Below, piece by piece: positions 250 through 24,924 of a stretch of 27,083 nucleotides of DNA. Origin of the DNA: an uncultured Candidatus Peribacteria bacterium (GTDB lineage Bacteria; Patescibacteriota; Gracilibacteria; BD1-5; UBA6164). Position 1 is the stretch's first letter; every line of letters begins with the position of its first letter. Under the pieces are notes generated by a model, which was not told where the DNA came from, searched no databases, and saw only the letters and a list, made by a program, of their open reading frames with translations. Made by a program: the position numbers and the translations under genes. The stretch spans positions 1 to 27,083 of the forward strand of contig CAYUZH010000004.1 of NCBI GenBank assembly GCA_964449635.1, in the 5' to 3' direction.

Positions 250-1149
250 ATGGATAAAAAAGTAGAAATATTTTTGAAAAATAAACCTTCCCGTAAACCA
301 AAACTTATCGTCATCTATTGACCAACAGCCTGTGGAAAGACAGCTCTCAGTATTGAAGTAGCAAAGTTTTTAGATACAGAAATAATTTCTACCGATTCTC
401 GTCAGATTTATAAAAGTATGGATATCGGCACAGGGAAAATTAAAGAAAGTGAAAAACAATGAATCATCCATCATATGATTGATATCATTGAACCGGCTCT
501 TCCCTACTCTGTCTGAGCCTTTCAGCGTGATGCAAAAACTTTCATAGATTGACTCCATAGTAGGTGAAAAACACCAATTCTTTGTGGATGAACGGGACTT
601 TATATCGATAGTCTCGTCTATGATTTTTCTCTCCCAAAAACTCCAAATAGTGAAACTCTGAGGAAGGAGCTGGAAGATGAACTCAAAGAGAAAGGAAGTG
701 AATATATGTTTGAAAAATTAAAGCGTATTGATCCAGAATACGACCATGAGATTCATCCAAATAATACAAAATATGTCTTGCGTGCTATAGAAGTTAAACT
801 CCTCACAGGAAAATCAAAATCCAAATTTAAGGAAGAAAAAAAACTAAGCTATGACACGCTTTTTATCACACCGTATGATGGGAATCGAGAAAAACTCTAT
901 GCCCGAATCAACGCACGTGTCGAAGCGATGTTTGAAGAGGGGCTTGTGGGAGAAGTAGAAAATTTGATAAAAATACCCAGGTTTATCTGAAGCCTCGCAA
1001 GTGAGTGAATCGGATATGCAGAAGTTATCGATTACATACATCAAAAAATACCGCTCAAAGAAGCGGTAAATCTTGTTCAGCAGCATAGTCGAAACTATGC
1101 CAAGAGGCAATTGACGTGGTTTAGGAGGTATGAGGGGAAGGTTCTATAA
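250..1149 (+). CDS. miaA: tRNA dimethylallyltransferase, 299 aa
   Basis: IVIY(G)PTACGKT P-loop, [24 protein letters not shown](G)[21 protein letters not shown]; continuous frame to TAA when TGA=Gly. Confidence 0.97.
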
Positions 1150-1731
1150 ATTCTCTCAAAATATTTCTTCTAGAGAACGAAAATAACATGTTGGATATCA
1201 AACTCCTGTCTCTGGATTTTTCTCGTGACAGACTGAGTTCGTTGTCGGTTGTACTTGAACCCTAAAAATAATATTTTCATTTGAATCAACTCCTCTCTGG
1301 AATGTCTCTGGAAAGAGTATTATTATATCCCCACTCGTTGCTCATTTTTTCTGAAGCCTTGCATTTGTTTTACTATATACCCATAATTCCCTATCTCTTT
1401 TTGAATTTTCAAATGCTTCGCTATTCATATTAGCTACATAATATACTTCCCCTTCTGGAGAATAAAGAATCACTCCAACCGTAGCTGTTTCATTTGGAAA
1501 TATTTCCGATAATTCTCAAACTTCTTTCCATTCAATTTTTGGAAGTTCAGGTGAAAGTTTTTTCGTACGAATAAGAAGAGAATCTTTATTACAGTTCCCA
1601 CAGATTTTATGTACCTTTTCTACTGTAGTTTTTACAAGGATTTTTGTATCTCAAAAAGAAGAAGTACTAAGTGACATATCTCCACTATCATCTACTGCTA
1701 AACATCTAAACTGTGTTTTATTTGCTGACAT
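1144..1731 (-). CDS. HisI-like (phosphoribosyl-AMP cyclohydrolase fold) protein with an extra degenerate N-terminal copy, 195 aa
   Basis: [25 protein letters not shown](G)ATSG and VCH...TCYFR match the HisI motifs MLGYMNxEAL, SRSRxxLWxKGETSG and CH...SCF. The DCD motif is absent from this copy. Confidence 0.75.
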
Positions 1732-1863
1732 AATAATACTTTATATAAAAATATAAATTCAGTATATAACTATTTTTAATTTAATGTCAATTATAAATTC
1801 CTGATAAAATCTTTGTCTTATGATACAATAAAAGGGAATAAAATATTTTTAATATATTTTCCC

Positions 1864-3219
1864 GTGTGACTCAAAGATTTCCTTGATAAAAGTATGAAAT
1901 CTCCCGCTCCCGACAATTCATCATCTTCTCCTGAAAAAGTAGAGGATTTATTTAGCGTTAAATCAGCTGAAAGTTCAGCAGAATACGAAAACTCAGATCT
2001 CCATTTATTTAACTATGGGACCGCATGAGATGACAGTACAACGATTAGTCTTGTCAATGATATATTTCTCGCTGCTTTTACAGAACAGGCTTCGGATATC
2101 CATATAGAACCACGAGAAAAACTTGTAAAGATTCGTTTTCGTGTCGATGGAAACTTTGTAAACTACAAAGATCTCCCTTTAAGTCAAAGGGATTCTCTCA
2201 TTGCTCGTATCAAAATTATGGCATATTTGAGAATAGACGAACACAGACTTCCACAAGATGGAAAAATAAACTATAAACTCTTTGCTGGAAAAACGGTCGA
2301 TATGCGTATCTCTGTTATCCCCACTATTTACGGAGAAAAATGTGTTATCCGTATACTAAAGAAAGACGAGAAACCACCTGAACTCAAAGAACTCTGAGTG
2401 CTTCCATACAATATGGTAAAAATTAAAAACCATCTCCAAGATAATTTTGGGATGATTCTTGCGGTTTGACCAACTGGAAGTGGAAAATCAACGACTCTTT
2501 TTACTCTTCTCTCTCAATTTAATCCAGAGGAAAACAATATCTCTACTCTTGAAGACCCGGTTGAATATCGAATCCCTGGAGTTAACCACACCCAGATTAA
2601 TCCAAGTATTGATTTTTCTTTTGCTACGGGACTTCGCTCACTTCTTCGTCAAGATCCAGATATCATTATGGTAGGAGAAATTCGTGATGAAGAGACGGCA
2701 AAACTTGCGGTAGAAGCGAGTATCACTGGTCATATCGTCTTTTCTACTCTTCATACCAATAGTGCGGTTCATACTATACAACGTCTGACAAATCTCGGAG
2801 TTGACCCACTTCTTATCACTTCTTCTATTCGACTCATTATATCCCAAAGACTCGCAAGAAAACTTTGTCCTCACTGTAAAGAAAGTTATACCGCTGATGA
2901 GAAAATTTCTGAAAATATCTTTAAGCAAGTAGGAAAATACATAAAAAATAAAAATTCTCTTCCCCTTTTTAGAGCTCATGGAGGAGGATGTGAAAAATGT
3001 AACGGAACTTGATATAAAGGAAGAATTTGATTTTTTGAAGTTCTCGAAATCACTGAAAAACTCGAAAATCTCATTCTTACAAATGCTAGCAAAACACAGA
3101 TGGAAATACAAGCACTCGGAGACGGAATGGTACCGATGAAAGAAGATGCTCTCCTAAAAGTAGTTATGTGAGATACAAGCCTTGAAGAGATGCTTTCTGT
3201 CCTTTGAGTCAGTAGTTAG
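1864..3219 (+). CDS. PilB/GspE-family secretion or pilus assembly ATPase (paralog 1), about 451 aa; start is GTG 1864 or ATG 1894
   Basis: ASDIHIEP, IRFRVDG, DEHRLPQDG, AV(G)[48 protein letters not shown]...GCEKC; ends at TAG 3217-3219. Confidence 0.95.
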
Positions 3220-7946: not shown

Positions 7947-8942
7947 TTATAAATATAGATTCAGAAGGATTTTTATATTGGAACCAAAAAAAAGTGCAAA
8001 AAATATTCAAAAAGCAAGAAATGGTCAAAATGGAATCATCATATTTTCTTTGAACTTTCCCGTCTTTAAGTATTTGAAAAAAAGTACGGACAAACCAATG
8101 ATGCTTCAGCAAATATACGTTGCAAAAAATCAAGTAAGAAGATACGAAAATCCAAGCATTAGTCACATCAAAAGAGCAATACGAAAATCTCCTCCTCATA
8201 TCCAAGCCCCTCCACTTATATAATACTGAACATAAAAGAAAACAAACATGACATACCCTGCAAGCATTCATTCAAGAGGTTGAAAATCGAGAATTTTTAT
8301 TCAAAAATACGAGTAGAGAAATATCGTGAGAACTCCTATCCCTCATAAAAGAAGAATATCCATTTTTTCCTCTTTTTCTTGCAACATGATAGCATACAAG
8401 GTAATAAAAATAATTCCTGTAGCTGTTGTAAAAGTCCCGATTTCAAGATATGAGAAATTTCAATGAACGAGTGCGAGGTAGAAAAGATAAAATAAAGCAG
8501 TAATATTTGCAATAGCAAGGATACTTTCTGGTATTTCCATGTACAAAATATCGTAAAATACATATACGACTGTACAAAATGCCAGTACCAAAAGTACGAG
8601 GAGCTTTAACCATTCGTCACTCATCCCTATAGGAAAAAATATTTTTTCGACATCGATCATAAAATAGCCTACCATAGTAAAAAAGCTTGCCATAGTAATT
8701 TCCAAAAGTGGATACACAAAAGGGATTTTTGATTGACAGTATCGACATTTTCCTCATGTTGAAAGGAAAGAAAAAAGAGGAAATAAATCACATGTTTTAA
8801 GCTGATGCATACATCGAGGGCAATGACTCCTTCCTGTAAATATCCCTTTTTCTTTGCTTTTAATTCTATAAATAACGACCGAAGCAAAACTTCAAAAGAT
8901 AGCTCCCAAAATTCATAAAAATGTGTAAAAAAATAATTCCAT
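7947..8942 (-). CDS. pilD: prepilin peptidase (A24A, PilD/GspO type), 331 aa
   Basis: F(G)SFASVVIYR, GRSHCPRC, KCRYC, YPLLE, first Asp motif FYDILYMEIP, second W I(G)GGDFRIA, IPF(G)PFLA; many TM helices. Confidence 0.93.
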
Positions 8943-8997
8943 ACTATCAAAAAAGATAAAATAAATGTACCCGTATCTAAGTTTAAGAGAATACAAA

Positions 8998-13584: not shown

Positions 13585-14580
13585 TTATTTTTGAGGAACT
13601 AATTTTGCATTTACAACTAGTCTTTTTAAAGTTGTTCCTATTGGCCAACAAGTCATAACAGAAAGCTCTGCTTCTTTACTCTCTTTCTTTAAAACAGAAA
13701 CATCTCCTGGAGTAATGGTTGTTTTTCCTTGAACTTCATATACAAATTTCTTTTGTTTGTAGTATACGATGATTTGGTCTCCATTTTCCAAGTGATCAAG
13801 AAGAGCAAATACATCATTATATTCTCACGGAACCCATGGGAAATTTGACGAATGTCAAAAGATAAAGGCATTTCATTGATCTCATGGTTTTGCACTTCCA
13901 GGATAACGAATGACTCATTTTTCCAAATCTTTCATAAATATATCCTCAAGTTCACTGTGACCAGAGACGACTTGTTGTTTAATATCAAGAAGTGGAATAT
14001 TTTTTCAAATTTTTGGTATAATGATTCTATTTTCATACGGAGTAATATCAATATCAAGAGAAACATCTTCTTCATTTGATTTTGCAAGAAGTTGATTAAT
14101 AGAATGTTGATTTCCTGATTTTGTTTCAAGTTCTTGAGCTTTTTTTTGATACTCTCCATCACTGAGAGAAAGGCTTCCAGCTTCTACTGAAGAGATAATA
14201 CTTTCTTTACTTTTTTCAAGAGAACCTGAGAATACATAGCTTTGTATAAGAGAGAAATAGGCACTATAGTTTGATGTTACAAGAAGAACAACAAAAATGA
14301 GAGATGAAGTTGTCACATATCTCACAAGAAAGAAAAATCAGAGAAATATTTTAGATACTGGCTTTTTTTCTTCTCTATGATGTTTCTTTTTCTTATCTGA
14401 AATAAGTAGTTCACATTCCGTTTTTGCTTGTTCAAGGGTCGTATCAAATCAAAGAAGTATTTCTGCTGTATGATCAATAGAATCTATTGATTTCAAAGGT
14501 TCTTCTTTTCTGAAACTTTCTTCTACTTCTATGACAAAACTATTTAAGATATCTTCAAAATTATCATTATTTTTTTTCAT
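13585..14580 (-). CDS. sortase, 331 aa
   Basis: ORF fragments 14005-14325 and 13585-13791 join in frame; IIIPKI(G), AFIFGHSSNFPW (His), LSVMTCWPIGTTLKRLVV (Cys, Arg); single TM anchor. Confidence 0.92.
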
Positions 14581-23574: not shown

Positions 23575-24924
23575 ATGAGCGAAAATACAACTCAAAAAGA
23601 TGATACTTCCTCTTCACAACAGTGAGGAGGAGTTCAAAATCAAAATATCCAAGAACTCAAAGAAACTCTTCTTTCACAAGCCGAAAAAAGAGAGTATTAT
23701 TCTGCTCGTTTTGATAAAATAGAGCAACATGTCAAAGAAAATCTCTGAAAGCAAAATACTGACGAAGTTCTTCGAGATATTACTCTTTGATCGATGGTGG
23801 TCTGAAGTTCAGATATTCACTATGAAGTGTATGAAAAAGATGTGATTGTTCGTTTCAGAATTGATGGTGTCCTTGTTGATATATTTAATCTTCAACATAA
23901 AGAATATAAAGCTATTCTTGAACGCTTAAAATATTCTGCTGGACTCAAGCTCAATATTGTTGAGGTTCCTCAAGATGGAAAATATTCTATGAAAATAGAT
24001 GAGAAAAAAGTAGATGTCAGAGTTTCTACTCTCCCCACAAAATACGGAGAAAACGTGGTTTGTAGAGTACTCGATGCTCAAAAAAATATCATAGATTTTG
24101 AAGAACTTGGTTTTTTTTGGACTTCAAAACGTATGATTGAAAAAGCAATTACTCAAAATACTTGAATGATTCTTGTCACGTGACCAACAGGGTCTTGAAA
24201 GACAACGACTTTGTATACAATGCTTGAACGTCTTAATACTCGTGATGTGAAAATCATCACTCTCGAAGACCCGATAGAGTATGAGATGCCGGGAGTTATC
24301 CAAGCAGAAGTCGATGAAAGAAAATCATTTACTTTCGCTGTTTGACTCAAAGCTCTGATGCGTCAAGATCCTGATATCATAATGGTCTGAGAAATCCGCG
24401 ATGCGGAAACTCTCAATACAGCTGTCAATGCTTCTTTGACTGGTCATCTTGTTCTTTCAACCCTCCATACAAAAAGTGCGGCTGAGACGCTTGATAGACT
24501 CAGAAATATGGGACTTCAAAATTTTCTCATGGCATCGGCTCTCAATACCATTATCGCTCAAAGACTCGTAAGAAAAATATGTTCTCATTGTAAAGTTGAA
24601 AAGCAAAAGACTCCCACAGAAGAAGCGATTGTAAAAAATATGATGGAAGAAACAGGAATGAAATGAATTCCAACCGAAAACATAAAACTTTATCACGGTA
24701 CTGGATGTGAACAATGTAATCATAGCGGATATCACGGAAGAATTTGAGTCTATGAAATTATCAATATGAACGAAAAACTTAGAGACCTCATCCGTTCATG
24801 AGCAAAAACAGAGGATATCATTCGCGAAGCAAGAAATGGTGATCTTATCACTATGAAAGAAGATGGTATCTTAAAAGCAATTCGAGGACATACGACAATA
24901 GAAGAACTTTTACGTGTTATATAA
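23575..24924 (+). CDS. PilB/GspE-family ATPase (paralog 2), 449 aa
   Basis: [20 protein letters not shown](G)PTGS(G)[23 protein letters not shown](G)[18 protein letters not shown]...GCEQC. Confidence 0.95.

Follow-up and report, generated by a model that had tools for sequence, protein, structure and literature searches.

Within a window of 27,083 nucleotides from an uncultured Candidatus Peribacteria bacterium (assembly GCA_964449635.1, contig CAYUZH010000004.1, positions 1 to 27,083), we studied a HisI-like gene on the minus strand (1144-1731) whose 195-residue product we refer to as P0001. The best explanation for this protein is that it is a single-chain, pseudo-dimeric member of the HisI family (phosphoribosyl-AMP cyclohydrolase, PRA-CH), probably descended from a tandem fusion that has since decayed. 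The genome under study (G000) comprises 1.08 Mb in 88 contigs and is 80.6% complete.

Evidence for this reading comes from the distribution of metal ligands along the chain. In the plant enzyme MtHISN2, one chain contributes Cys142 and Cys149 to the catalytic zinc site and its partner contributes Cys126*, and the metal-binding residues are Asp125, Asp127, Cys142, His143 and Cys149 of one chain with Cys126* and Asp129* of the other (PMC8102479), in agreement with the description of HisI in an earlier note on this DNA as a homodimer whose Zn site is split between subunits. We assumed that these seven residues form one site and mapped them onto P0001. Asp125, Asp127, Cys142, His143 and Cys149 all find their counterparts in the C-terminal domain: D149, which is kept; N151, an Asn in P0001, with at least one Asp at 149/151 in 8 close family members; and the invariant C168, H169 and C182. 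The residues that the homodimer takes from its partner, Cys126* and Asp129*, correspond to C47 and D50 of the N-terminal domain, both also invariant. A second, symmetric site would need S150 and N153 of the C-domain and N46 and N48 of the N-domain, among which there is no Cys or Asp, and the N-domain has no CH...C loop. Retention and loss are thus complementary between the halves of P0001, residue by residue, and the C-domain lacks the DCDxD cysteine in every close family member. Read from the sequence, the architecture is quite likely that of a pseudo-dimeric HisI in which the split ligands have been joined in one chain. Each chain would then rebuild one composite active site, as opposed to the two of a normal dimer.

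Residues 70-195 (1144-1524, minus strand) are a genuine PRA-CH/HisI domain with the complete fold. Pfam PRA-CH (PF01502) matches residues 99-172 with 39.8 bits against a cut-off of 27. An AlphaFold2 (AF2) model of P0001 built on a 57-sequence alignment scored 95.1 for predicted local distance difference (pLDDT) and 0.90 for predicted template modelling (pTM); searched with Foldseek, it matched only HisI structures (E down to 1e-6), and VIA-align superposed residues 70-195 on the HisI chains 6j22, 7bgn and 1zps with Z of 12.2-13.3. The closeness of the C-terminal ~130 residues to HisI that the earlier note had remarked on is therefore confirmed by both the Pfam score and the fold. The top match in the PDB, 7mcd, an AI-designed TIM barrel (E 8.5e-7), was discarded as a chance match, being built from a short DILIVNPDDFEKGVEE-like stretch repeated four times.

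Despite this fold, the domain departs from canonical HisI in several respects. The NCBIfam HisI/HisIE equivalogs NF000768 and NF002747 were not reached (36.6 against a cut-off of 126, and 41.8 against 187). The half-site C168-H169...C182 (1186-1230, minus strand) would supply two of the Zn ligands plus the general base, at a 14-residue 'long loop' spacing; C168 and C182 are invariant, and H169 nearly invariant, across the 57 sequences. The DCDxD strand, whose replacement the earlier note had described, is indeed degenerate: V148-D149-S150-N151-E152-N153 (1273-1290, minus strand) aligns opposite VDCDGD of 1zps with Ser in place of Cys, so that no DCDxD lies inside the catalytic domain and the Cys-bearing NCNKD strand sits in the N-domain instead. 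The stretch S120-K121-T122...Q127-K-K129-G-A-T132-S133 (1333-1374, minus strand) is the counterpart of the SRS and WxKGETS motifs, which bind the phosphoribosyl and adenine moieties (PMC8102479). In the P0001 clade, SKTN replaces SRSR, and LQKKGATSG, with Gln127, replaces the Trp-containing motif, with Lys129, Thr132 and Ser133 retained; P0001 thus lacks the combination of adenine-stacking Trp and SRS phosphate motif found in canonical HisI.

The N-terminal domain (residues 1-58; 1558-1731, minus strand) is a beta-beta-alpha-beta-beta unit without substrate hairpin or CH...C loop, as judged by AF2 and hhalign. The AF2 model from the 57-sequence alignment places strands at 7-13, 19-25, 40-46 and 51-56 and a helix at 26-39, and a rerun with 7 family sequences only returned the identical topology (pLDDT 76, pTM 0.74); both are consistent with HisI minus the hairpin. 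The relocated 'DCDxD' strand is N46-C47-N48-K49-D50 (1582-1596, minus strand), in which we propose C47 as the third Zn ligand and D50 as a Mg ligand. The 7-member family alignment, in which identity drops as low as 35%, has C10, N46, C47, N48 and D50 in every sequence, which upholds the earlier report of an N-terminal NCNKD-type motif. Cys10 itself (codon at window position 1704) lies in the first strand of the domain and is also found in P0015/P0016 (xCLFV); the position does not correspond to any known ligand of HisI.

Profile comparison suggests a link between this domain and HisI. With hhalign, the N-terminal segments of 11 sequences matched 30 single-domain HisI proteins with a probability of 85% (P 5.8e-6) on the strand 'V.xI..NCNxDtLL', and matched the N-copies of tandem proteins with 89% (P 2.1e-6) over 58 columns. 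In the latter alignment QFRCLAV falls on the IPVIVQD strand and the next strand and helix on VLMLAYMN-EAL, with the beta3-beta4 substrate hairpin appearing as a gap. MAFFT likewise placed NCNKD under NCNQD/DCDQD/NCYQD of the tandem N-copies, with motif and following hydrophobic strand in register. A 180-residue AlphaFold DB cluster representative matches the P0001 model structurally over its full length (template modelling scores 0.69/0.75). The proposal that the N-terminal ~60 residues are a truncated HisI copy is made plausible by hhalign, at probabilities short of decisive, and by the intermediates described below, while Pfam, which finds no match inside residues 1-62, gives it no help; a Protein Atlas search with the same residues also gave no usable match.

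A profile search of 1.84 billion representatives returned few close relatives of P0001, plus a set of two-copy proteins, and it is these that document the route by which the architecture may have arisen. P0034 (247 residues) has two near-complete copies, the first with DCDQD and the second with DCNKD and CH...C. In P0041 (Nanoarchaeota), P0032 and P0022 the C-copy has no Cys and the hairpin of the N-copy is decaying, and in P0052, P0031, the Gracilibacteria proteins P0015/16/18 and the P0001 family the N-copy is cut to about 55-60 residues. The tandem N-copies are unmistakably HisI (hhalign against single-domain HisI, 99.7%, E 2e-26). The Cys strand is confined to the N-copy in 15 of the 16 two-copy proteins (P0034 has it in both), and CH...C is likewise present in 15, always in the C-copy. 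This graded series, from P0034 through P0032/P0041/P0022 to the truncated N-copies, backs the origin by duplication and fusion put forward earlier. An ancestral tandem HisI-HisI fusion would have been followed by complementary degeneration of its two copies. The C-copy would have kept the full fold, the nucleotide-binding hairpin and the Cys168-His169...Cys182 half-site while losing the DCDxD cysteine, and the N-copy would have shrunk to a beta-beta-alpha-beta-beta unit still presenting N46-C47-N48-x-D50, including the residues that a homodimer borrows from its partner. A tree of the C-domain (100 columns) does not settle whether the two-copy forms had a single origin; it forces at least two groups and places the P0001 family on a separate long branch.

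Two further observations concern the two-copy proteins. P0010, a metagenomic protein of 190 residues on a very long branch, is the only one without CH...C; it has Tyr in place of His169, has lost GATSG and carries SCDKK as its N-copy motif, and probably represents a catalytically dead offshoot. On an archaeal contig with eIF-1A and diphthamide synthase genes nearby (L036:4008-5565), two tandem-type PRA-CH genes of 222 and 227 residues lie side by side; in both, the N-copy carries DCDQD and the C-copy carries CH...C.

The nearest relatives in the profile search define a 'long-loop' HisI subfamily, with 14 residues from CH to C and the motif N-C-[E/N/D]-x-[N/D]. The motif also occurs in single-domain long-loop proteins: P0024 (NCNQD), encoded 3 nt downstream of a long-form hisG; P0014, a HisI-HisG fusion; and P0021 (NCEQN), from an ordinary free-living genome. 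The earlier note had regarded the two Asp to Asn changes as an accompaniment of the fusion, but since the single-domain, hisG-linked P0024 and P0014 share them, the Asn residues are not a by-product of it. As the Asn motif is found in hisG-linked long-loop proteins, it appears compatible with function downstream of HisG.

Linkage to hisG recurs among the relatives. A hisG gene adjoins the HisI-like gene in G089, G152, G158, L010, L035, L038, L011 and L041, the neighbour in L011 being a HisG-PRA-PH fusion; the gene's position beside hisG in related genomes argues that the family works downstream of ATP phosphoribosyltransferase. In two Gracilibacteria we also observed a gene of the Trp-repressor family (PF01371, YerC/YecD-like) directly upstream on the same strand (L009:6597-6917 and L010:5715-6008), preceding the HisI-like gene in the first and hisG plus the HisI-like gene in the second; no such gene was found in G000.

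In the genome under study, the rest of the histidine pathway is missing, as had been anticipated: a search of G000 gave no match for HisA/F, IGPD or HisD, and only sub-threshold matches for PRA-PH and Pfam HisG. HisA/F, IGPD and HisD were likewise found in none of 10 to 50 genomes of the same family, nor in G233, which is 98% complete and carries an ortholog. The remaining histidine pathway that accompanies canonical HisI is therefore lacking here, the product cannot feed histidine synthesis, and such a role for P0001 is excluded for practical purposes.

This does not mean that pathway context is absent altogether, as the earlier note might suggest, because relatives adjoin hisG and G000 holds a divergent HisG-like open reading frame (ORF). 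Using a custom HisG profile built from hisG genes flanking two-copy or long-loop HisI genes, we matched one of 10,670 G000 ORFs (C18:18004-18855, minus strand; E 1.6e-8), which retains the GxD, GxxE and xxG-DS-xxxGL motifs. Its protein, P0102, considered alone, gave an unreliable 18-bit HisG match with Pfam/NCBIfam and reached significance only with the custom profile; no homologs of it were found in 120 genomes. The first ~39 codons (MKNIPQNTLLLPAESRLKKE...) are off-frame beside an A-run at the contig end (region L002:1231-2270, equivalent to C18:18004-19043, minus strand), reflecting either a frameshift or an assembly error. The sub-threshold PRA-PH match proved to be the MazG-like N-domain of P0103 (L003:676-1677, contig C47, minus strand; 333 residues), in which a MazG/PRA-PH-like all-alpha pyrophosphatase domain is fused to a bona fide adenine phosphoribosyltransferase (APRT). 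We considered P0103 as a HisG/HisE analogue and dropped it: 27 of the 121 genomes of the order have the N-domain, with no correlation to presence of the HisI-like gene, and the APRT domain scores as a true APRT.

Similar partial gene sets recur elsewhere. Divergent HisG-like genes are present in G239, G216, G240 and G254, in which no HisI-like gene was detected, and the genomes of genus g9 that have hisG beside the HisI-like gene have no HisA/F and no PRA-PH above cut-off. Across the class, some families have full his operons, and HisG-HisI pairs without HisA/F occur in G013, G033, G062, G072 and G135. The class-level pairs (these five genomes and G012; L016, L017 and L023) encode a canonical, archaeal-type HisI with DCDxD, and in G012 the pair, on C5, exists besides a full his operon on C2. 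These pairs, including the extra one in G012, suggest that the opening steps of the pathway have a use of their own.

As to the chemistry, a Zn-activated water, with His169 as base, would open the ring of an N1-substituted adenine nucleotide, phosphoribosyl-AMP (PR-AMP) or possibly phosphoribosyl-ATP (PR-ATP), to judge from the conserved residues. For the wider family, the chemistry most likely to apply is Zn-dependent ring opening of PR-AMP, or PR-ATP, given the conserved catalytic residues and the linkage of relatives to hisG. That PR-AMP-type chemistry has been retained in G000 we regard as an even chance, and we are less sure of the substrate of the P0001 clade, given the changes from Trp to Gln127 and from SRSR to SKTN and a HisG that is missing or doubtful.

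Several observations weigh against P0001 being a pseudo-dimeric PRA-CH. Of the Mg site, only D149, N151 and D50 are left. Trp107, which stacks on the adenine in MtHISN2 (PMC8102479), has Gln127 as its counterpart in the P0001 clade. Substrate supply is doubtful, in that G000 has no PRA-PH above cut-off and its sole HisG-like ORF is very divergent (14-20% identity) with its first ~39 codons in another frame; in G233, complete to 98% and possessing the ortholog, neither Pfam HisG nor the custom HisG alignment found a match. Finally, the sequence signal is weak in the first 40 residues, most of the hhalign score coming from the motif strand, and the N-domain alone matches just generic beta-grasp folds (protein L, Z ~5).

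One way to accommodate the points on substrate binding and supply is that the pseudo-dimer architecture was kept while the enzyme was repurposed, acting on another N1-substituted or modified adenine nucleotide after the working HisG/HisE supply was lost. We consider this possible but rather unlikely. The absence of HisA/F, IGPD and HisD in G000, with PRA-PH below threshold, speaks for it, as do the presence of the ortholog in G233 without HisG, HisE or HisA/F, the substitution of SKTN for SRSR and of Gln127 for the adenine-stacking Trp (which the hisG-linked sister clade P0015/16/18 retains), and the persistence of purifying selection. However, the correlation between these changes and the loss of supply is based on two clades only, G000 does hold a HisG-like ORF, and no candidate substrate emerged. 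An AMP-deaminase-like role was dropped, as G000 gave no match to an IMPDH that could consume IMP, nor to an adenosine/AMP deaminase (A_deaminase). The MazG-like/APRT fusion, for its part, does not track the HisI-like gene in its distribution.

Purine-related genes were noted in some of the genomes with hisG. G089, which carries hisG and a pseudo-dimer HisI-like gene, has PurH and PurC-like genes (C1:596367-597401 and C2:101646-102461), and PurC is also present in the hisG-carrying G152 and G160; full-length PurH was found only in G089 among the 121 genomes of the order. The hisG/HisI-like and PurH/PurC genes may thus be a purine-related set travelling together. Given PurC in G089 and its kin, 5-aminoimidazole-4-carboxamide ribonucleotide (AICAR) may stem from de novo steps, as opposed to an ATP-AICAR-inosine monophosphate shunt via PurH. 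A broader conjecture, which we find doubtful, is that HisG and a pseudo-dimeric or tandem HisI form a stand-alone module in genome-reduced episymbionts (Gracilibacteria, other Patescibacteria and Nanoarchaeota), one that would carry out just the opening reactions of histidine synthesis with a non-histidine purpose. In the P0001 clade the loss of a working HisG would have been followed by a change of substrate (Trp to Gln, SRSR to SKTN). If true, such a module would yield ring-opened adenine nucleotides of the phosphoribosylformimino-AICAR phosphate (ProFAR) type for purine interconversion, or a novel metabolite or signal.

A different objection is that the N-terminal 60 residues are an unrelated small beta-grasp domain, with a regulatory or structural role, in which NCNxD arose by chance or convergence, making P0001 an ordinary dimer with an incomplete, two-Cys site. 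The generic beta-grasp matches, the blank Pfam result for residues 1-62 and hhalign probabilities of 85-89%, which are not decisive, would all fit. Nonetheless we judge it improbable, as the graded intermediates include N-copies that are clearly HisI, the motif and the hydrophobic strand after it align in register, C47 and D50 are invariant whereas the Cys is missing from the C-domain in every member, and AF2 packs both domains together (pTM 0.90).

P0001 could also be a decaying relic, or a catalytically dead pseudo-enzyme, from a lost histidine pathway. The distribution of the gene is patchy: the family profile found it in 6 of 121 genomes of the order, namely G000, G233 and 4 of 19 in genus g9, and G233 is the only one of 50 other genomes within the family of G000 to have it. 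The pathway is absent, the HisG-like ORF looks frameshifted, and P0010 shows that members can lose the His, GATSG and part of the motifs. However, purifying selection acts on the gene. Its orthologs in L004 and L007 are 70-72% identical and share the order T2SSE / HisI-like gene / miaA, and the ratio of nonsynonymous to synonymous substitution rates (dN/dS) is 0.19-0.21 between P0001 and these orthologs and 0.13 between L004 and L007, with values of ~0.1 in the C-domain and 0.2-0.6 in the N-domain. With the ORF intact, all catalytic residues invariant in sequences down to 35% identity, and synteny and a promoter-like site conserved, a relic is highly improbable. In L004 and L007 (L004:2257-2757 and L007:1592-2110), the HisI-like gene is preceded at 24 nt, on the same strand, by a gene of 166-172 residues that matches no family; this gene is absent from the window and from the remainder of G000.

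That P0001 is an ordinary HisI of a complete histidine pathway encoded elsewhere in the genome is hardly credible: the assembly is only 80.6% complete and other families of the class have full his operons, but HisA/F, IGPD and HisD are lacking in G000, in 10 to 50 same-family genomes and in the 98%-complete G233, and the equivalog scores fall far short (36.6 against 126, 41.8 against 187).

The gene itself is read with genetic code 25 (TGA=Gly, SR1/Gracilibacteria), which is needed for a good reading across the whole window, and contains five in-frame TGA=Gly codons; translation of 1144-1731 with table 11 was rejected because it splits the region into short fragments. All the motifs quoted in the earlier note are present in P0001, including the Gly encoded by TGA and VCH...PTC, and the convergent 6-nt overlap with miaA was likewise found (miaA at 250-1149, plus strand; IPPT, 275 bits). 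On the other side, a T2SSE ATPase gene (1813-3219, plus strand) is divergent from the HisI-like gene, with 81 nt between them, and a promoter-like site, TTGACA-18-TATACT (1761-1790, minus strand), lies ~30 nt 5' of the ATG; it is a consensus match only, at 11/12 positions. Family searches of the window genes turned up no further his gene, as the earlier note had stated, the remainder being housekeeping and pilus genes. Among these, two ATPase genes of T2SSE/PilB type together with one prepilin peptidase-like gene and one sortase gene (1813-3219, 7947-8996, 13585-14580 and 23575-24924) within 27 kb point to a gene set for pilus or cell-surface machinery.

If the pseudo-dimer reading of P0001 is true, it provides a clear natural case in which duplication, fusion and complementary decay turned a homodimer with shared sites into a single chain, with living intermediates at each stage that could help to explain, and to engineer, the active sites of obligate dimers. 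The protein also draws attention to tiny symbiont genomes that recurrently keep hisG and hisI-like genes without the remaining histidine biosynthesis, which suggests an unrecognised use for early intermediates of the pathway. Public annotations call family members 'hypothetical protein' or plain 'phosphoribosyl-AMP cyclohydrolase', and the latter name can give the false impression that these organisms synthesise histidine. A full-text literature search of a limited collection found no description of tandem or pseudo-dimeric HisI.

Compared with canonical HisI (PF01502; 1ZPS, 6J22/6J2L, 7BGM/7BGN), P0001 shares the fold of residues 70-195, the Cys-His...Cys residues for Zn and base, and the nucleotide-binding motifs KGxTSG and S-[KR]-[ST]. 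It also has a DCDxD-like strand that bears the third Cys, and its relatives are associated with hisG. Canonical HisI, however, forms a homodimer whose two symmetric sites each take the DCD cysteine and one Asp from the other subunit, whereas P0001 would combine a whole and a stripped-down copy in one chain with one site only. It differs further in the NCNxD motif, the change of Trp to Gln, the long CH-to-C loop and the lack of a histidine pathway around it. With the 'long-loop' proteins P0021, P0024 and P0014 it has in common the 14-residue CH...C spacing, Asn for the first Asp and hisG linkage; these relatives have a single domain that bears all the ligands, and are presumably homodimers. A further parallel is with the tandem HisI-HisI proteins from uncultured bacteria and DPANN archaea (P0034, P0041, P0032 and P0022) and the P0015 clade, which share the N-copy Cys strand and the C-copy CH...C, P0015/16 also sharing the xCLFV N-terminal strand with the P0001 family. 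Several of their genes adjoin hisG or a HisG-PRA-PH fusion, but unlike P0001 they have longer N-copies, keep a degenerate substrate hairpin and retain the Trp in LWxKG. Set beside these systems, P0001 would be a new architectural form of a known enzyme family.

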